Both the position numbers and the translations under genes were made by a program. Positions 17,947 to 62,994 of a DNA stretch of 64,000 nucleotides are shown here, piece after piece. Below the pieces are notes generated by a model, which was given only the letters and a program-made list of their open reading frames with translations, did not search any database and had not been told where the DNA came from. Location of the stretch: positions 5,294-69,293 of the forward strand of contig WRKW01000002.1 of assembly GCA_009777955.1 (NCBI GenBank), given 5' to 3'. Position 1 is the stretch's first letter. Each line of letters opens with the position of its first letter. Source of the DNA: Alphaproteobacteria bacterium (lineage in GTDB: Bacteria; Pseudomonadota; Alphaproteobacteria; Rs-D84).

Positions 17947-18741
17947 TTAGTCGCTGATTATATCTTCAACCCAGTCTAAAATCTCTTTACTCGGATTGCT
18001 TATCACAAGTTCTTGCCATTGGCCTGTCTTTTGAAAATAATCGTCTTTCCAACCTGGCGAACACACACTTGAAAACTCTGCATTTTTGAAAGAAGTAGGC
18101 AAATCCCATTTAGACCTGCTCATTCCATTTTTAGTTAGAACGCGTTTGTCTGCGTATTTTAATGTTCCGTATTGTCTATCTTTCGGGATAAAAAGCCAGT
18201 TATTATCATCCTGGTCAAAAAGACTTCGTGCAATCTCTTTTTTTGAGTGCGGATGCCATGGACAAATTCGTGCAATATCAGCCGTTCCTTTTATTATTCC
18301 ACCAACTTCCATAAAGCCATAAATTATGTGCTTATCCGGACCAACGAATGCAAGCTTACCATTGTCTTGTAATTCCGTTTGTCTGAACCAACCAAAAAAC
18401 ACAAACAAGTCGCCAATACCAACATTGGATTTTTTAAGGTGTGACAAGGCAGCCCCTTGTTGTCCGAATGCAGGAATCCAATTCTCAGGACAACTATTTA
18501 TGCAATCATTTCTTATGTCCGGGTCAAGATGACAGAATCTAATATCAAAAGCAGGGTTCAGTTCTTTTATTATCTGTTCATAAGTTTTTCCATTATAGGA
18601 AATGTCCGAGAATCTTCGTTCGCTATTTTTATCAGGAATTGGCAATGATAAAAGCGTACCGTCCGACAATATAGGATTTGGCATACCGCCTGCACTTGAA
18701 TCAAAGCCCTTACGGCTTAGAATAATTTTCTGTTTTTTCAT
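17947..18741 (-). CDS. Hypothetical protein (264 aa)
   Basis: Long clean ORF. No recognised motif. Confidence 0.45.
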   Translation of the reverse strand: MKKQKIILSRKGFDSSAGGMPNPILSDGTLLSLPIPDKNSERRFSDISYNGKTYEQIIKELNPAFDIRFCHLDPDIRNDCINSCPENWIPAFGQQGAALSHLKKSNVGIGDLFVFFGWFRQTELQDNGKLAFVGPDKHIIYGFMEVGGIIKGTADIARICPWHPHSKKEIARSLFDQDDNNWLFIPKDRQYGTLKYADKRVLTKNGMSRSKWDLPTSFKNAEFSSVCSPGWKDDYFQKTGQWQELVISNPSKEILDWVEDIISD

Positions 18742-18917
18742 ATATGAATTATAAAGTACGCAGATGCAAAAATAAAGCCCAAACAGGCGGTGAGAATCGA
18801 ACTCCGTGCCATTTCTCCGAAAGGTTGGATTTCCAAGCTTTTTCAGTAGATAGTTCGATAGCTCCGTAAAAACTGCTGATTTAAAATATCATATTAACGG
18901 GCAGTGCAAAAGACAAA

Positions 18918-19163
18918 TTATTTCCAAAGCCTTTTATTCGCGAACGCCTGGCCAGAATGTGTTTTAAGATAATATTCAAATTCTTTCGCCTGACGTTCAT
19001 CAGAAAATGATAAATATGTTATCAATTCCCACGGCTTAAATTTGCTTGTATGTATGGACTTTCCATTATTGTGATCTTTTATACGTTGTTTCAAATCAGA
19101 TGAAAATCCAATATATTTTTGATTTGGGGAGTTGATACTTTTTATAAGATATACATAAAACAT
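18918..19163 (-). CDS. GIY-YIG nuclease family protein (small, YhbQ/UPF0213-like)
   Basis: YVYLIKSINSPNQKYIGFSSDLKQRIKDHNNG matches the GIY...YIG...R..H.N core. 81 aa. Confidence 0.7.
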   Translation of the reverse strand: MFYVYLIKSINSPNQKYIGFSSDLKQRIKDHNNGKSIHTSKFKPWELITYLSFSDERQAKEFEYYLKTHSGQAFANKRLWK

Positions 19164-19185
19164 TGGTGCTTTTTTTGATTTGTGT

Positions 19186-19289
19186 CCAGGCTTCGCTTTT
19201 CAAGCTACGCCGGACTAGTCTTCGCTAACTTCTCTCTACGGCCTGCCTTACTGGCGTAAGCCAGGCGTAGCTCGAAGAGCGAAGCCTGG
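19186..19289. repeat. Long inverted repeat (26-bp arms, 2 mismatches, ~52-bp loop) abutting the tRNA-Gly 3' end
   Basis: ccaggcttcgcttttcaagctacgcc pairs with ggcgtagctcgaagagcgaagcctgg. A single-arm copy occurs at 61896-61920 after tRNA-Ser. Confidence 0.7.
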
Positions 19290-19360
19290 TGCGGGCGAAG
19301 GGAATCGAACCCTCGTCTCAAGCTTGGGAAGCTCGCATTCTGCCATTGAACCACGCCCGC
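19287..19360 (-). tRNA. tRNA-Gly (anticodon CCC)
   Basis: Reverse complement GCGGGCGTGGTTCAATGGCAGAATGCGAGCTTCCCAAGCTTGAGACGAGGGTTCGATTCCCTTCGCCCGCACCA. Near-identical architecture to E. coli tRNA-Gly(CCC). Confidence 0.85.
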
Positions 19361-19522
19361 GAAGTTTACGAATTATAACCAGATTTCATTTGACTTTCAA
19401 TAGATTTGTTATATACTTACCGTAAGTAAAAACGAATCCTTGGCCTGTGGGTCTGGGACACCGAACGGCAAGTGTTTGCTCTCGGTGGCTTTTTATTGGA
19501 AAAACAAAAAAGGATACAAAAC

Positions 19523-20029
19523 ATGGCAGTTGCAATAAGACTTTCAAGACATGGCGCGAAGAAACGGCCCTATTATCACATAGTTGTAACAGATTCCCGT
19601 CTTGCACGCGATTCTGGCAGTATTTTGGCCACCATAGGAAAATATGACCCGATGCAGCCAAAGGATAGTGACAGACGGATGAAAATTGATGCAGACAAGG
19701 TAAAATCTTGGATGGGAAAAGGGGCACGTCCATCGGACAGAGTTTACAAATTGTTGGCAAACGCAGGATTGTTGGAAAAAAGACCATTCCCGGTTCAGAC
19801 AAAGAAAAATCAGCCGTCTGAAAAAACCCTGATGAAACTGAAAGATCGCGAGGCAAAGCTTGCCAAAGTTGCCGAAGATAAAGCGGCGGTCGATGCGGCC
19901 GCGAAAACAGAGATGGAAAAACCGAACGATAATCCGGTGGAAACTTCGGCCGAAGCTGTTGTCGCAACAGAACCAGTGGCAGAATCAGTTCCAGTCGAAG
20001 CCCCGACAGAAGAAGCAAAAGCAGAATAA
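19523..20029 (+). CDS. rpsP: 30S ribosomal protein S16 with Ala/Glu-rich C-terminal extension
   Basis: MAVAIRLSRHGAKKRPYYHIVVTDSR. RBS AAGGA. Confidence 0.9.
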   Translation: MAVAIRLSRHGAKKRPYYHIVVTDSRLARDSGSILATIGKYDPMQPKDSDRRMKIDADKVKSWMGKGARPSDRVYKLLANAGLLEKRPFPVQTKKNQPSEKTLMKLKDREAKLAKVAEDKAAVDAAAKTEMEKPNDNPVETSAEAVVATEPVAESVPVEAPTEEAKAE

Positions 20030-24442: not shown

Positions 24443-24994
24443 TCAAAGGCCAAGACCCGCAAACAGCGCCGACCGGACAGCGGAAGAGTTCTGGGCGAAG
24501 AATGCGCAATTGAACGCGCAGTTATCCGCGCAAATGGACGGAGTGCTGTAGTCGTTCGCGAAAACCCAAGCCGACAAAGCGACACTAAACCCAGGAATGC
24601 TGGTTATCTTACACCAACAGTATTGTCCGTTATCTGCAACAGGGTTGCCAATGTTAAGGTAGCTTCCGCTTGTATTTGAACAAAGGCTTGTGCCACTGAA
24701 TTCCGATACATTACTCCCGGTACAATTTGTTGCTTTCCAATCGCCAAGGGATAGGTTGGTGCAATCACGATTTTGCGTGGCATTACCACCAGTGCCACCA
24801 CTAGCAGGACACTGGGACCAATCACCACTTGGACAACTCGTCGGACTTATAGGTCTTGCCATACACGCCACAGCGGCAATAGACTGATGCAATGGGATTA
24901 TCGTTAATACAGCAAGGATACTTGTTATCTTTATAGTTTTGTTAAATGTATTCATGATACTCTCTCCTTTGGGTATATTTATATTATACCACAT
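24443..24994 (-). CDS. Cys-rich secreted protein, paralog B (183 aa)
   Basis: Paralog of the 15276..15785 product (MNTFNKTIKITSILAVLTIIPLH...). Confidence 0.6.
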   Translation of the reverse strand: MWYNINIPKGESIMNTFNKTIKITSILAVLTIIPLHQSIAAVACMARPISPTSCPSGDWSQCPASGGTGGNATQNRDCTNLSLGDWKATNCTGSNVSEFSGTSLCSNTSGSYLNIGNPVADNGQYCWCKITSIPGFSVALSAWVFANDYSTPSICADNCAFNCAFFAQNSSAVRSALFAGLGL

Positions 24995-25023: not shown

Positions 25024-25200
25024 CATGTAAAGTAAACGCATTCTTAACGGCTCTTTTAAAAGAGCCGTCATGCCTTCCGCCTTCGCTATCGCTACGGTGC
25101 GACAAGGCGCAGACACCCATTGTTCAATAAGGCATCGTGCGCACAGCGCACGATACATACATTATTCATTATTCATTCAGCTGAAATCCACAACCCATAC
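25024..25200. repeat. Mosaic palindromic repeat, inverted copy (hairpin acggctcttttaaaagagccgt plus cgcacagcgcacgataca...attattcattattcattc)
   Basis: Same modules as the 12303 and 50694 repeats in reverse orientation. Confidence 0.75.
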
Positions 25201-25242
25201 TTTCTACTGGAAAATCCGTTGTGTATTTTATATCATGCTTTT

Positions 25243-26487
25243 ATGACTATCCAGAAACCGGAACCTTTTGTAAAACCTGATATTATTTTCAGTGTCAGCG
25301 ATGCGGCCGCACTGTTGAAAAATGTGGTAGAAACGGCGTTCCCGCAAATAAAAATTCGTGGCGAATTGTCACAAATTACACGTGCCGCCAGCGGACATAT
25401 TTATATGACTGTAAAAGATGCCGGTGCCGCGATAAGCGTGATTATATGGCGTGGTACGCCCGTGCCTTTCCAACTGGCAGATGGATTGGAAGTCATCATA
25501 ACTGGAAAATTTACTACATATCCCGCCCGATCTAATTATCAAATAGTGGCAAACGAAATAGAAATGGCCGGTGCCGGCGCGATATTAAAAATGCTGGAAG
25601 AACGCAAGAAAAAACTGGCGGCAGAGGGTTTGTTTGATGCATCGCGCAAACGCCCTATTCCAAAATTTCCAAATATAATAGGAATTGTGACATCGCCGAC
25701 GGGCGCGGCTTTCCAGGATATACAGAATCGGTTGCGTGAACGTTTTCCGGTGCGTGTGTTGTTATATCCCGCACAGGTTCAGGGGGTAACGGCCGCCGCA
25801 GAGGTTGCCGCCGGGATAGAATATTTCAACAAAATGACCGATGTTCGTCCCGATATAATCATTGTGGCGCGTGGCGGCGGAAGTCTGGAAGATCTTTTGC
25901 CTTTTTCAGAAGAAATCGTTGTTCGCGCAACAGCCGCATCAAAAATTCCGTTGATTTCTGGTGTGGGGCACGAGCCTGACAATATGCTTATAGATTTCGC
26001 AGCAGATATACGTGCCCCGACACCGACGGGCGCGGCGGAAATAGCGGTGCCCACCAAAATATCAATAATGACCGAGATTGAAAATTTGTCGCACAGGATG
26101 TCCGGTGCCTATATCGCGCGGTTTCGTAATTTGCGGCACATAGTTGAAAGTTTGAATGTAAAAAGCCCGCGTCAGATGATTATGGAACGTACACAAAGGC
26201 TGGATGACATTGGTCGTACGATCAATATAATTTTCATGGGTCGTTTGAACGCCGCGCGCACCGCGATTTTGTCCGCAAACAGCTTTCCCGTGTTGTTATC
26301 GAACAAATTGGCCACAGTGCGGCAATCCGTTCTGCACGAAAGCCAGATGTTGAATTCGCTTTCTTATAAAAATGTGTTGTCGCGCGGATATGCAATTGTC
26401 CGTCACAACAATAAAATAATTTCCGTTAAATCAGAATTTGCACGTCCCGTGGAAATAGAATTTATGGACGGCACAGTAAACATATAA
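25243..26487 (+). CDS. xseA: Exodeoxyribonuclease VII large subunit
   Basis: N-terminal OB-fold (GELSQITRAASGHIYMTVKD). Catalytic region (GVGHEPD). Confidence 0.9.
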   Translation: MTIQKPEPFVKPDIIFSVSDAAALLKNVVETAFPQIKIRGELSQITRAASGHIYMTVKDAGAAISVIIWRGTPVPFQLADGLEVIITGKFTTYPARSNYQIVANEIEMAGAGAILKMLEERKKKLAAEGLFDASRKRPIPKFPNIIGIVTSPTGAAFQDIQNRLRERFPVRVLLYPAQVQGVTAAAEVAAGIEYFNKMTDVRPDIIIVARGGGSLEDLLPFSEEIVVRATAASKIPLISGVGHEPDNMLIDFAADIRAPTPTGAAEIAVPTKISIMTEIENLSHRMSGAYIARFRNLRHIVESLNVKSPRQMIMERTQRLDDIGRTINIIFMGRLNAARTAILSANSFPVLLSNKLATVRQSVLHESQMLNSLSYKNVLSRGYAIVRHNNKIISVKSEFARPVEIEFMDGTVNI

Positions 26488-60080: not shown

Positions 60081-61310
60081 CTATACCGCTTCCGCTATAA
60101 AACGTGGCTCTTTATCCGGTTCAATATCTATCAGTTTCACATCTATTATACTGCGCGCTGGAATTATTTCGCCCCTGCCCCCGTTGTTGACGATCTTTAT
60201 CGGTACATCATGTGTGTCACGCGCGATGTTATTTTTTTCAATCAATACCGAAACCGTTCGACCAACTTGTTCCCGCATAAATTCCAGCATATTTGTCCGT
60301 GTCAGTTCGGTAACTATGCGAACGCGGCGTTTTGACTCTGCCGTATCAATTTGATTTGGCATTGTCGCGGCCGGTGTTCCCGGTCGCGGACTGAATGGGA
60401 ATACATGCAGACGTATCGGTTTTAATTCGTTGATAAGTGCACAGGTTTCATCAAAATATTCTTTTGTTTCGCCCGGAAACCCGCAAATCAAATCCCAAGA
60501 AAAAGACACATTATCCGCATATTTCATCAAATCCCGTACCATTTGTGCATTGTGCCGACGACCCATGCGGTATAAAATCGCATCGCTTCCGGATTGCATC
60601 GAAAGGTGCATGTGTGGCATCATCCGCATATTTTCGCGCATCATATCGGCCAATGGTCGTAAATCTGTACCGGGATCCAGCGATGACAGCCGTAATCGCC
60701 GCAATGTCGGGATATCGGCCAGCAATTTATTACATAAACCGGAAAGCCCGAATTTGTTGTCATCCTGCCAACTATATCCCGCGATGTCCACCCCGGTAAG
60801 GACTATTTCACCGTATCCATTGTCCGTCAACGCGCCGGTTTGTGCCAATATCTGTTCGTATGGAAATGATACATTACGACCGCGCAACCGACTTACTATG
60901 CAATATGCACAGGAATGATTACAGCCATTTTGAATCTGGACGAAACCTTTTGAAAGCGAAGAATGGCTGGAAAGAAGCGGTGGAATTACATCACAATCAA
61001 TGCCATAGGCCTTGATATCCATCTTGTCTTTATTTATGATTACCCGTGTTACACCGTCGATTGCCCGAAAATCATCCGGTGCGCGTGTTGCGGCGCAACC
61101 CGTTACAAATAACATGGTGCCCGGGTTTTCCCGTGCCAGCTTTCGGATTGCTTGTTTTGACTGACGCTCTGCTTCTTTTGTTACTGTACAGGTATTCACG
61201 ATAATGGCGCGGGATAACCCCGCTTTCATCAGCATCGCTTTTATCTTTTCGGCCTCCAAAGCATTCAATCGACAGCCCAGAGATATAAAATTTATTTCTT
61301 GATTTTTCAT
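60081..61310 (-). CDS. Radical-SAM methylthiotransferase, MiaB/RimO/MtaB family (MtaB-like, 409 aa)
   Basis: N-terminal MTTase domain (ISLGCRLN). CNHSCAYC radical-SAM cluster. C-terminal TRAM-like region. Confidence 0.85.
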   Translation of the reverse strand: MKNQEINFISLGCRLNALEAEKIKAMLMKAGLSRAIIVNTCTVTKEAERQSKQAIRKLARENPGTMLFVTGCAATRAPDDFRAIDGVTRVIINKDKMDIKAYGIDCDVIPPLLSSHSSLSKGFVQIQNGCNHSCAYCIVSRLRGRNVSFPYEQILAQTGALTDNGYGEIVLTGVDIAGYSWQDDNKFGLSGLCNKLLADIPTLRRLRLSSLDPGTDLRPLADMMRENMRMMPHMHLSMQSGSDAILYRMGRRHNAQMVRDLMKYADNVSFSWDLICGFPGETKEYFDETCALINELKPIRLHVFPFSPRPGTPAATMPNQIDTAESKRRVRIVTELTRTNMLEFMREQVGRTVSVLIEKNNIARDTHDVPIKIVNNGGRGEIIPARSIIDVKLIDIEPDKEPRFIAEAV

Positions 61311-61361
61311 TGTTGGTGGTGCATTATAGCGGGACTTTGGAACAATTCAAGAGGTTATGAT

Positions 61362-61754
61362 ATGGCTCGCATAACAAATACAGACACATTACCATTCGTA
61401 AGCAGTCGTTACGAACTGGGCATGCTTTCGGCACAACGTGTGCGTGATTTGAATGGTGGGGCGGAACCATTGGTTCCGGTCAAAGGTGACAAGCAAACTG
61501 TAACTTCCCTGCGTGAAATTGCATCCGGAAAACTGGATATTGATAACCTGCGTCATGAATTTATCCAGTCTTATAAAAATGTACCTGTTGCCAATGATAC
61601 CGAAGGCGCAATAGAATCAAAGTCCGAAGATCCCCTGTTGAAAGAAATCGATGTGGAATTGGAAAGCGCGATAGTCGAATCCGATGAAGTGATGCCCGTG
61701 GAAGAGATTGCTGACGAACCGAAAGAATCGACATCAGATTCCGTGGAAGAATAA
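61362..61754 (+). CDS. rpoZ: DNA-directed RNA polymerase subunit omega
   Basis: MARITNTDTL...SRYELGMLSAQRVRDLNGGAEPLV...DKQTVTSLREIASG. Confidence 0.85.
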   Translation: MARITNTDTLPFVSSRYELGMLSAQRVRDLNGGAEPLVPVKGDKQTVTSLREIASGKLDIDNLRHEFIQSYKNVPVANDTEGAIESKSEDPLLKEIDVELESAIVESDEVMPVEEIADEPKESTSDSVEE

Positions 61755-61760
61755 GTTTCA

Positions 61761-61850
61761 GGAGACGTCGCATAGCGGTCTAGTGCGCTCGCTTGGAAAG
61801 CGAGTATGGGGGCAACTCCATCGAGAGTTCGAATCTCTCCGTCTCCGCCA
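61761..61850 (+). tRNA. tRNA-Ser (anticodon GGA)
   Basis: GGAGACGTCGCATAGCGGTCTAGTGCGCTCGCTTGGAAAGCGAG, a long variable arm, then GAGAGTTCGAATCTCTCCGTCTCCGCCA. Confidence 0.9.
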
Positions 61851-61940
61851 CCAATTTTCGTTAATTTTTGCAAAGCAAAAATTTAAGAAAATTGAGTGCC
61901 CGCCGTAGCTTTAGCGAAGGCTGGGCTGTTGGAGCATCTT

Positions 61941-62039
61941 TATGTATTTTCAAAGTGAAATTCATCCTGATATTACATGCGTTGGCTATTCAACAGACCT
62001 AAAACAGCGTCTTTCAGAGCATAACTCCGACAGCAAATA
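61941..62039 (+). pseudogene. Truncated GIY-YIG nuclease gene remnant (32 codons)
   Basis: MYFQSEIHPDITCVGYSTDLKQRLSEHNSDSK* aligns with the N-terminal half of the 18918..19163 product (YIGFSSDLKQRIKDHNNGKS). A single-arm copy of the 19186-19289 inverted repeat sits at 61896-61920. Confidence 0.55.
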
Positions 62040-62046
62040 AGAGATT

Positions 62047-62994
62047 ATGGAAATGACTGCAACAATACACTTAATACATGGTTTTATTGGTTTTGGAAAG
62101 ACCACAATTGCGAAACAGCTTGCGCACGAATTGCCCGCCGTTATTTTGACCAATGATGATTTTATGGTTCGGTTATATGGACGGAATCCCCCGGCGGACA
62201 TGTTCCAAAGTTATTATAATCGTGTCGATGATCTAATCTGGGATTTGGCAGAGAAAATTATAAAAGCAGGAACCGATGTAATTATAGACCATGGATTCTG
62301 GACCAAAGAATCGCGTGGGGTTGCCCATAATCGGGCAAAGGAAATTACGGATAATGTTGTTTTCCATAATATTCAATGTGATATAGACACAGCCCGTCAA
62401 AGCGTATTAGAGCGCACAAAAAGAAACAGGTCAGAGCTGACCATAGATGAAAATGCTTTTGACTTGTTTTATCCACAGTTTCAACCGATAAGTTCAGATG
62501 AAAATTATGAAATAATAAACCACGATAATAATCTTAAAGAATGGAATTATGCCGTATACATTTTGCCGGTACGTGAAATTGATGGTAAAAAACAGGTCGC
62601 TTTATCAGTTTATAAAACTGAATGGTATTGTGCAATTGGCGGGCGCAAAGATGGTAACGAATCCCCACGTGAAACCGCCATCCGGGAAATGATAGAAGAA
62701 TTGGGCGACAGTGCAAGATCTGTTATGGATAATGCCATGGAATTTTCAAAGAAAAATATATGCAAGATTCGTGACATTTGGTTCCGTCGCGCAAAAAATG
62801 AAGAACATACATATTTTATTGCCCGGGTATCGGCGGATACGGAATTATCGTTTTGTGAAAAAGATAATCCGGGATTTGAAATTGAATGGTTGGATGTCGA
62901 TGCCTTGGGCGACGCAAATATAATCAAGTTGGATGAAGTGCGTGAATATTATATAGAACATATTATCCCCGCTATAAAATCTGATTCATTTTAA
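62047..62994 (+). CDS. Fusion protein: P-loop NTP-binding kinase-like domain (AAA_33/zeta-like) plus C-terminal Nudix hydrolase
   Basis: Walker A GFIGFGKTT with D-rich downstream motifs. C-terminal Nudix box GGRKDGNESPRETAIREMIEELG. Confidence 0.65.
   Translation: MEMTATIHLIHGFIGFGKTTIAKQLAHELPAVILTNDDFMVRLYGRNPPADMFQSYYNRVDDLIWDLAEKIIKAGTDVIIDHGFWTKESRGVAHNRAKEITDNVVFHNIQCDIDTARQSVLERTKRNRSELTIDENAFDLFYPQFQPISSDENYEIINHDNNLKEWNYAVYILPVREIDGKKQVALSVYKTEWYCAIGGRKDGNESPRETAIREMIEELGDSARSVMDNAMEFSKKNICKIRDIWFRRAKNEEHTYFIARVSADTELSFCEKDNPGFEIEWLDVDALGDANIIKLDEVREYYIEHIIPAIKSDSF

Follow-up and report, generated by a model that had tools for sequence, protein, structure and literature searches.

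Why should a gene for a small GIY-YIG nuclease, accompanied by long hairpins, lie directly behind two different transfer RNA (tRNA) genes of one bacterium, intact at the one and decayed at the other? The question is raised by 64,000 nucleotides of contig WRKW01000002.1 (assembly GCA_009777955.1, positions 5,294 to 69,293), from an Alphaproteobacteria bacterium; "the window" below means this whole stretch. The original prediction held that a tRNA-Gly and a tRNA-Ser gene in the window carry the same cassette at their 3' flanks and that it is a small site-specific mobile or homing-like element. Our analyses bear out the architecture, and the further copies, element ends and empty sites described below support the second part as well. 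At a probability of roughly 55%, we read the sequence evidence as pointing to a minimal, free-standing, homing-like selfish cassette (~350 to 450 bp) that would parasitise the 3' ends of tRNA and transfer-messenger RNA (tmRNA) genes just past the CCA. Its parts are two to three hairpin modules of one family and an 80-residue GIY-YIG nuclease. The intact copy, on the minus strand, is laid out as follows.

19288..19360, minus strand: tRNA-Gly(ccc), host gene of the intact cassette (calls start at 19287/19290; ARAGORN, and Rfam at 67.6 bits)
19262..19290, minus strand: hairpin module M1 in inverted orientation, CCAGGC-TTCGC-TCTTCGA-GCTAC-GCCTGG (covariance model 45.9 bits, E 2e-8; one of the model's own seeds)
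19215..19261, minus strand: central spacer, consisting of the hairpin GCCTGGCTTAC-GCCA-GTAAGGCAGGC and then a degenerate module (CGTAG..GCGAAG), from sequence and fold
19184..19215, minus strand: hairpin module M2 in forward orientation, CCGGC-GTAGC-TTGAAAA-GCGAAG-CCTGG (covariance model 31 bits, E 7e-5)
18918..19163, minus strand: intact gene for an 81-aa GIY-YIG nuclease, a bare SLX1/UPF0213-type domain (PF01541, E 1.5e-17)

The CCA of this tRNA-Gly is encoded (19290-19288, minus strand), and the first hairpin begins on it: the 5' strand of M1 is the CCA plus 3 nt, and the right arm of the inverted repeat at this locus (31-nt arms at 19186-19216 and 19259-19289, 87% complementary) overlaps it (19288-19290). 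The 26-nt core of the repeat occurs twice in the window, against 0.00 occurrences expected. What had been described as one long inverted repeat is M1 and M2 together, and it proved to be made of members of a family of hairpin modules. The central hairpin uses as its 5' strand nucleotides 19262-19267, which are also the 3' strand of M1, and the central spacer part falls within the long hairpin of the computed fold. Taken whole, the 124-nt spacer folds as RNA into a single long hairpin (-61.1 kcal/mol, z -7.5); its other strand folded as DNA gives a z of -5.4. On the right, the cassette ends with the stop codon of the GIY-YIG gene. The decayed copy lies on the plus strand.

61761..61850, plus strand: tRNA-Ser(gga) with encoded CCA, host gene of the dead cassette (ARAGORN/Rfam)
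61852..61894, plus strand: AT-rich 20-bp hairpin, a variant first module that begins one base past the CCA (repeat search; likeness to locus L090)
61898..61926, plus strand: hairpin module M2, CCCGCC-GTAGC-TTTA-GCGAA-GGCTGGG (covariance model 29.4 bits, E 1.6e-4)
61942..62040, plus strand: GIY-YIG pseudogene of 32 codons (Pfam, family profile and shuffles)

The "single arm" of the repeat that had been noticed behind tRNA-Ser is really a complete second hairpin module. It contains the motif CGTAGC-N-GCGAAG at 61904-61919 (CGTAGCTTTAGCGAAG), which has four matches in the window against 0.02 expected. The open reading frame (ORF) at 61942-62040 scores 19.6 bits (E 1.1e-3) against the Pfam GIY-YIG model, just under the gathering score of 22.6. 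A profile hidden Markov model (HMM) of the family gives it 25.0 bits; with all 1810 six-frame segments of the window searched, this is an E value of 1.5e-6, and the intact gene is the only other match to that profile. In a shuffle control, 0 of 2000 shuffled versions reached its score, the shuffle maximum being 9.3 bits. The fragment covers profile positions 7-33 (nucleotides 61948-62028). Because the N-terminal YVY motif and Tyr17 are lost and the frame ends ahead of Glu63 and Asn76, we regard it as a pseudogene.

The subthreshold Pfam score (19.6 versus 22.6 bits) is what could be said for the view that two unrelated tRNA flanks share a short motif and a GIY-YIG-like ORF by chance. The E value of the family HMM, the shuffles, the significant module hit at this locus, the excess of the motif and the recurrence of the same layout in dozens of genomes make that view untenable, and we consider it refuted by the comparative loci, the shuffle control and the covariance model.

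To judge by their sequences, the two cassettes of the window belong to different lineages, of which the tRNA-Gly copy is alive and the tRNA-Ser copy dead. At the metagenome locus L090, which is a tRNA-Gly locus, the hairpin CCAATTTTC...GAAAATTG is followed by CCCGCC-GAAGC...GCGAAG-GCTGGG, as at the tRNA-Ser gene of the window; since L090 carries the same hairpin pair, the AT-rich hairpin at 61852-61894 can be recognised as a variant first module. The idea that the window had captured the element in both living and dead states is thus right as to the states, both of which are present, but the dead copy is not a decayed duplicate of the living one.

Two observations in the immediate surroundings touch on the history of these copies. 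A decayed, full-length tRNA-Ser(GGA)-like pseudogene lies outside the intact cassette, 52 nt past the GIY-YIG stop codon (18784..18865, minus strand); it aligns with the tRNA-Ser(gga) of the window with a local score of 40 (z 7.0, 0 of 500 shuffles), the anticodon loop GCTTGGAAA included, and Rfam makes no tRNA call for it. As the live tRNA-Ser(gga) bears the dead cassette, a common past may link the two loci, for instance through an old pair of Gly and Ser tRNAs or through a duplication. At the other locus, a gene for a fusion of an AAA_33 P-loop kinase-like domain with a NUDIX hydrolase (62047-62994, plus strand) starts 7 nt past the GIY-YIG remnant, and its arrival may have caused the truncation.

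Further copies beside tRNAs were found in number. A scan of one genome per GTDB species confirmed at least 556 stretches and gave the locus set used here, 80 loci with 82 gene copies (handles beginning with L). In 63 of the 82, a tRNA or tmRNA on the same strand ends 82-381 nt ahead of the start codon, a position behind a tRNA that only one or two percent of bacterial genes occupy. The hosts include 13 tRNA identities (Leu, Gln, Ser, Pro, Thr, Asn, Ala, Val, Arg, Gly, Glu, His, and Asp) and, in 8 loci, tmRNA. The bacteria concerned are mostly Alphaproteobacteria; several "delta" lineages, Binatia, Tectomicrobia, Methylomirabilales, Nitrospirales, Verrucomicrobiota, Kiritimatiellia, Victivallales, Acidobacteria, Bdellovibrionota, TM6, and two candidate-phyla-radiation groups are also represented. 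Different tRNAs are occupied within a single genus (Rhizomicrobium, Terricaulis, Enterousia, and Mesorhizobium), the protein tree intermixes phyla and sites, and near-identical copies are found across phyla and tRNAs, as in L054 and L063 or in L051 and L071 (80% nucleotide identity).

For 19 copies no tRNA was called, and 9 of these are cut by a contig end within 400 nt. In 10 copies, the contig-cut and uncut groups taken together, a tRNA-like 3' end finishing in CCA stands straight before the first hairpin. The origin of such fragments can be seen in two marine metagenome contigs, L100 and L102, which hold one tRNA-Ala(cgc)-plus-cassette locus in two states (1100-1510). In L102 the tRNA is intact and followed by the cassette, while in L100 a tyrosine-integrase island has inserted at the anticodon stem, so that the far junction consists of the cassette preceded by the final 48 nt of the tRNA. 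This split explains the tRNA 3' fragments that precede cassettes, and cassette-bearing tRNAs evidently remain integration targets. We therefore rejected the loci without a tRNA as counterexamples, as most of them bear tRNA 3' fragments.

The same contigs bring up a different account, according to which tyrosine-integrase islands, acting in trans or by imprecise excision, moved the cassette together with a 3' segment of the tRNA between like tRNAs, and the GIY-YIG gene is cargo. Islands do insert into cassette-bearing tRNAs and displace the 3' half with the cassette, several loci have a mere tRNA 3' fragment before the cassette, and in L035 the decayed tRNA copy that lies past the stop codon (see below) has the classic layout of a right attachment site (attR). 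Against this, no integrase is found within 8 kb of the window's intact cassette, and the element holds one ORF, of 243 nt. The similarity between copies at different tRNAs begins at the CCA and not inside the tRNA; a matching phage-type attachment site (attP) would be needed for each tRNA identity, which leaves 13 identities and tmRNA unexplained, and the conserved nuclease and invariant hairpin loops are not explained either. We consider such passenger movement unlikely.

Contig ends deserve a remark of their own. Assemblies end 100-400 nt 5' of the GIY-YIG start in L004-L007, L009, L019, L023, L031, L037, and L069, and the tRNA and hairpin region may break short-read assemblies. Gene callers often lengthen the GIY-YIG ORF upstream through the hairpins, which gives products of 100-130 aa.

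Where does the element begin and end? In a BLAST comparison, L051 (tRNA-His) and L071 (tRNA-Ser) align at 80% over 364 nt, from position -2 of the tRNA end to position -2 of the stop-codon end, and like ends were obtained for Ala versus Leu, Thr versus Gln, Gln versus Leu, Arg versus Leu, and Ala versus tmRNA; some alignments between different tRNAs begin ~24 nt earlier, in the generic T-arm. Copies at different tRNAs are in this sense alike from the CCA to the stop codon only. For the window and L092, which share the tRNA and differ in genomic context, the alignment opens with the tRNA's first base (19361) and breaks off after the final base of the stop codon (18918).

The corresponding empty sites exist as well. 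Eleven metagenome contigs have a tRNA-Gly with an identical 33-nt 3' end, and the nuclease gene is present in 0 of the 11; nine are empty and diverge right past the CCA into terminators or genes, and the other two (L090 and L081) keep hairpins only. In L082 (6663-6800), ~105 nt of unrelated sequence separate an otherwise empty tRNA-Gly(ccc) site from a decayed tRNA 3' end (GGTTTCCCCTCGCCCGCACTA), after which comes the flank seen in L084 and L089; the arrangement looks like the scar of another integration or excision event.

Other loci show duplication and decay of the cassette or its parts. L021 has two tandem units of tRNA-Ser plus cassette, L075 has a second, decayed gene behind a repeated spacer, and L046 has six first modules in tandem; tandem arrays of modules occur in L036, L039, L043, L046, L058, and L077, and direct repeats of the spacer follow straight after the stop codon in L011, L016, L009, L060, and L064. 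Exact copies of the last 13-17 nt of the tRNA lie 44-58 nt past the stop codon in L035 (17 nt), L039 (14 nt), and L071 (13 nt). In L071 this duplicate is followed by an older, decayed first module, and in L035 the stretch past the stop codon is a decayed tRNA copy from the anticodon stem onward. More generally, tRNAs resemble their own downstream tails more than those of other loci (P = 4.6e-4, 53 loci), a weak signal. The duplicates may be target duplications made at insertion or relics of integrase events at these tRNAs. The target-site duplication for which the junctions were inspected is clear in 3 of the 63 loci, and it may also stem from separate integrase events.

The hairpins have a common design, which begins right after the discriminator base of the tRNA: CCA-xyC-TTCGC-(short palindrome)-GCTWC-Gy'x'-TGG. 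Because the stem opens at the CCA, the tRNA's own CCA is its outer part. In 60 of 64 loci, the 6-mer that starts with CCA has its exact complement no more than 80 nt away, whereas shuffled spacers give a mean of 5.3 such loci and at most 11. The stem bases covary (GCC/GGC, CCC/GGG, TCC/GGA, CGC/GCG, CAC/GTG, GAC/GTC, GGC/GCC in the window, ACC/GGT, and TGC/GCA), and L076 shows a compensatory change, CCG paired with CGG. Modules are recognised by a 6-7-bp stem, CGWAGC, a small inner stem-loop, GCGAAG, and the closing stem. As the CCA hairpin, read on the other strand, has this signature of the gene-proximal hairpin, a single module family makes up the spacer as two mutually inverted copies, often joined by a third. 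Over 54 distinct modules the covariation score is 0.546, compared with 0.170 in shuffles. Since the modules had been filtered on the outer stem, the share of paired positions there is biased upward; the inner pair, which was not used in selecting modules, is CG in 26, UA in 14, and GC in 11. Wobble pairs favour the purine-loop strand of each module by 10 to 2 (small counts), and many modules have GTAG inside them.

We built a covariance model from 54 seed modules, mostly from other genomes; one seed is the tRNA-Gly module of the window, which is for that reason the top hit there by construction. In the 64-kb window the model makes exactly three significant hits, at 19260-19290, 19184-19215, and 61898-61926 (E 2e-8, 7e-5, and 1.6e-4), and its next-best hit has an E value of 2.9. 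In 430 kb of related loci it makes 120 hits; ~116 of them fall into the interval from tRNA end to start codon or just past the stop codon, and ~4 are outside the spacer, two of them just after the gene. A regular expression for the module has 102 matches in cassette zones and 6 elsewhere. With matches confined in this way, the modules belong to the cassette and are not a dispersed genomic repeat.

These counts also bear on an explanation modelled on the REP/REPIN-RAYT systems, in which a single-copy, vertically inherited nuclease would propagate or maintain the hairpins as nonautonomous elements and the position at tRNAs would be secondary. There are real likenesses: in both, a nuclease-type gene stands between inverted copies of one family of short GC-rich hairpins, inheritance is mostly vertical, and the gene has persisted for long under purifying selection. 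The module-only sites L090 and L081 and the tandem module arrays in six loci would fit as well. However, modules off the cassette are rare (6 of 108 by the regular expression, ~4 of 120 by the covariance model in 430 kb), the 64-kb window has no extra ones, and the enzyme is a GIY-YIG nuclease and not an HUH Y1 transposase. As judged from the window and the 430 kb of loci, the repeats of the cassette are anchored at tRNA and tmRNA 3' ends, unlike the dispersed repeats of REPIN-RAYT systems. An arrangement of this kind seems improbable to us.

Several other candidates were set aside. The fourth match to CGTAGC-N-GCGAAG in the window (CGTAGCGATAGCGAAG, 25081-25096, minus strand) lies between xseA (25120-26487, plus strand) and an ORF for a secreted protein (183 aa, 24443-24994, minus strand) and is flanked by the palindrome ATCGTGCGC-TGT-GCGCACGAT and a terminator-like hairpin. 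We rejected it as a third cassette, since no tRNA or GIY-YIG gene adjoins it and it finds no support from the covariance model; an orphan fragment or a chance match may lie behind it. A tRNA-like or other known RNA in the spacer was rejected because only tRNAs reach Rfam gathering scores in the window and nothing credible appears in 18650-19400 at E values up to 10. Finally, the left end of the cassette (CCAxyC-TTCGC) might have been copied in the 3' coding end of the gene (SGxAFANKRLW), but codon x does not change along with the bases of the stem; the similarity to GCCTTCGCC simply encodes Ala-Phe-Ala.

What kind of enzyme is attached to these hairpins? The window protein, which is identical to one annotated in an Alphaproteobacteria metagenome-assembled genome (MAG), matches PF01541 with 64.1 bits (cutoff 22.6, E 1.5e-17) over profile positions 1-74 of 78, and GIY-YIG and T5orf172 are its only Pfam matches. 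The family is tightly conserved at 80 aa, with 55-79% identity across phyla and the C-terminal sequence AFANKRLW; 26 homologues share Y3/Y5, Y17, G19, R27, H31, E63, and N76 without exception, and at least 90% have H38. The invariant residues correspond to the catalytic Tyr, Tyr, Arg, His, Glu, and Asn of I-TevI; with this set intact, the protein is a predicted nuclease. A search of the family profile against PDB found the UPF0213 structure 1zg2 at 1.2e-8 and the SLX1 homologue 7wme at 1.1e-7. The AlphaFold model (mean predicted local distance difference test score, 95.6) is nearest in Foldseek to the plant SLX1 homologue HIGLE and yeast Slx1 (7wme, 7cq2/3, and 6seh/6sei; template-modelling scores of 0.70-0.74), with UPF0213 next and I-TevI (0.51) and UvrC (0.54) far behind. 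By sequence and predicted structure alike, the nuclease is a bare domain of the structure-specific SLX1/HIGLE/UPF0213 branch. At 80-81 aa, it has no residues past the catalytic domain, no DNA-binding module, and no RING or zinc-finger domain.

When 1.84 billion representatives were searched with the profile, 3,117 cluster representatives matched it at an E value of 1e-10 or better. Among 72,556 plasmid records the sole match was a weak one to Bacillus yazA, and among 50,697 phage records there was no match to the family, so carriage on plasmids or phages was rejected. No NCBIfam model matches the nuclease; this, with a marginal PADLOC match (E 4e-3) and weak PHROGs matches, led us to reject a role in a defence system.

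The cassette has no promoter of its own in sight. Upstream of tRNA-Gly lies the following site.

19372..19400, minus strand: sigma-70-like promoter TTGAAA-17-TATAAT, matching at 11/12 positions

This is the only promoter-like site able to drive both tRNA-Gly and the cassette; the spacer contains no promoter-like site and the interval from tRNA to gene no terminator-like site. Given that arrangement, read-through from the tRNA is the likely source of the nuclease mRNA. The tRNA-Lys of the window has a terminator hairpin immediately after it, and in L092 a terminator directly follows the nuclease stop codon. In many lineages the gene-proximal stem is CCCTCC/GGAGGG, and its 3' strand is a Shine-Dalgarno sequence 5-10 nt before the start codon. 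Of 64 loci, 24 have a sequence of this type no more than 20 nt from the start, and in most of these it is the M2 3' strand; the tRNA-Gly copy of the window has no recognisable one.

Put together, these features suggest how a selfish cassette could live at tRNA genes. The nuclease gene, having no promoter, would be transcribed by read-through from the tRNA promoter; the long GC-rich hairpins would let the tRNA be cut free from the shared transcript, and in many lineages they would sequester the Shine-Dalgarno sequence in the CCCTCC/GGAGGG stem and so keep synthesis of the nuclease low. The nuclease would read DNA shape, either a hairpin or cruciform at the junction of module and tRNA or the extruded T-arm and acceptor of an empty tRNA gene, would recognise the invariant CGWAGC/GCGAAG loops along with that shape, and would nick there. 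Repair or replication could then copy the cassette into the cut tRNA 3' end, in a homing-like manner as for phage SegB. Insertion might sometimes leave behind tandem arrays or a second copy of 13-17 nt from the tRNA 3' end, and it would be followed by long vertical inheritance.

A number of our results weigh against a mobile, selfish cassette. In Bradyrhizobium (tRNA-Ala ggc) and Mesorhizobium (tRNA-Ser gct), both flanks are also conserved within the genus, and similarity that runs through both flanks indicates vertical descent. We found no near-identical copies at two sites, and identical proteins only in identical contexts; recent transposition was rejected after two proteins present on many contigs were looked up and every place proved to have the same context. 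Flanking duplicates are seen in just 3 to 5 of 63 loci and could be integrase relics, and there is no right-side homology of the kind needed for classical homing between different tRNAs. An 80-residue domain without a DNA-binding module is unlikely to be a sequence-specific homing enzyme. With the family absent from the phage records and essentially so from the plasmid records, these carriers offer no vehicle for spread across phyla. Lastly, the ratio of nonsynonymous to synonymous substitution rates (dN/dS) at orthologous sites is 0.02-0.19 (dS 0.3-0.9 where unsaturated), which denotes stronger selection than one would look for in a homing gene that is fixed and purely selfish; a host function would agree with it.

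For three of these reasons (purifying selection, a locus that stays in place within genera, and no sign of a recent hop), we keep as the main rival a domesticated, host-beneficial module linked to tRNAs. It would be a conserved operon partner that might, for example, process the shared transcript or resolve structures or conflicts at heavily transcribed tRNA genes, with the variety of tRNA partners due to ancient rearrangements. The constancy of context in populations (the same protein always in the same place) and the near absence from phages and plasmids agree with such a role, as does the compensatory maintenance of the stem that pairs with the CCA, which would be expected if release of the tRNA matters. 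What such a role would not lead one to expect is the patchy distribution, with 9 of 11 relatives with an identical tRNA-Gly wholly without the cassette, or the use of 13 tRNA identities plus tmRNA and of differing tRNAs within one genus. Near-identical copies in different phyla and tRNAs, a protein tree that mixes phyla and sites, and the pseudogenes, module-only relics, and tandem arrays also count against it. On balance, we judge domestication rather unlikely, and we continue to favour the homing-like selfish cassette.

By analogy, the nearest precedent of the cassette would be phage SegB. The site at which SegB cuts is the T-loop box (RAWTSGAAC) within tRNA genes; its homologues are enriched beside tRNAs, and it drives tandem amplification (PMC13096335). 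Like the cassette, SegB of phages T4 and T6 is an intergenic GIY-YIG gene beside tRNAs with presence/absence polymorphism and tandem arrays. SegB has ~220 aa and includes a DNA-binding part, whereas the cassette protein is a catalytic domain only (80 aa), with an SLX1/HIGLE-like and not an I-TevI-like fold. The cassette, moreover, is chromosomal in many bacterial phyla, with none in the phage records, its position after the CCA and its orientation are fixed, and the hairpin modules always go along with it. Free-standing homing genes in general (Seg/Mob) share with it the presence/absence polymorphism at a conserved site, and the cassette differs in having no separate DNA-binding domain.

In sequence and structure, the best matches of the protein are to SLX1, HIGLE, and UPF0213 (YhbQ, YazA, and BH0048), with the same catalytic residues. 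SLX1 cuts branched DNA, flaps, and junctions, a substrate range that fits the hairpins or cruciforms of the cassette. Unlike SLX1, the cassette protein has no RING/PHD or partner-binding domain and no Slx4 partner, and it forms a separate 80-aa clade; to our knowledge, SLX1/UPF0213 genes have no tie to tRNA genes or hairpin repeats. Islands and prophages with tyrosine integrases that target tRNA and tmRNA genes have in common with the cassette the target class, the intact tRNA, and the occasional direct repeats of the tRNA 3' end. The cassette is, by comparison, ~0.4 kb long, has no integrase, and has its junction past the CCA and not in the T or anticodon arm, and the islands insert independently into tRNAs that bear it. 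IS200/IS605 elements likewise have ends set by hairpins in place of terminal inverted repeats, lie immediately 3' of a short fixed sequence (here the CCA), and show a strand bias such as that of the wobble pairs above; the cassette, in contrast, lacks TnpA and TnpB, ends on the right in a stop codon without a hairpin, and is present at about one copy per genome.

The remaining surroundings of the two loci are described here for completeness. Next after the intact cassette is a gene for nucleotide modification associated domain 3 (Nmad3; 17947-18741, minus strand, E 1.7e-54), and several small ORFs without a Pfam match lie beyond it at 13.9-17.2 kb. The Nmad3 gene and these ORFs may be a small foreign segment beside the tRNA; no integrase was seen there. 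Adjoining tRNA-Gly on the other side is an ORF that looks, by eye only, like ribosomal protein S16 with a long acidic C-terminal tail (19472-20029, plus strand), and before tRNA-Ser is an ORF for the omega subunit of RNA polymerase (Rpb6 type; 61299-61754, plus strand), which also has a long acidic C-terminal tail. The acidic tails appear to be features of the lineage of the source MAG.

How far, then, can the finding be generalised? It is tempting to see in it a new class of autonomous mobile element, possibly the smallest in bacteria, in which an 80-residue SLX1-like nuclease and two to three hairpins would be enough for exact insertion behind the CCA of whatever tRNA or tmRNA gene, guided by DNA shape in place of a long sequence, with tRNA promoters serving for expression; we put this forward tentatively, as a claim with the odds somewhat against it. 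We found no description of the cassette in the searchable full-text literature, whose coverage was incomplete, so that an earlier description is possible. Genes for tRNAs and tmRNA are the classic landing pads of integrase-borne islands, and their 3' ends are safe, conserved, and strongly transcribed sites. If the reading proposed here is true, the cassette would be an integrase-free way onto these landing pads and a bacterial chromosomal counterpart of phage SegB. It gives a candidate substrate for proteins that are annotated only as "GIY-YIG nuclease family protein," accounts for gene calls that are overextended at the N terminus through the hairpins, and may account for contig breaks. If the nuclease does read shape, nuclease and hairpin together would make a compact tool with a universal, safe insertion site. 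The strong purifying selection, in turn, poses a puzzle for the biology of the family: why the gene persists once it has become fixed.

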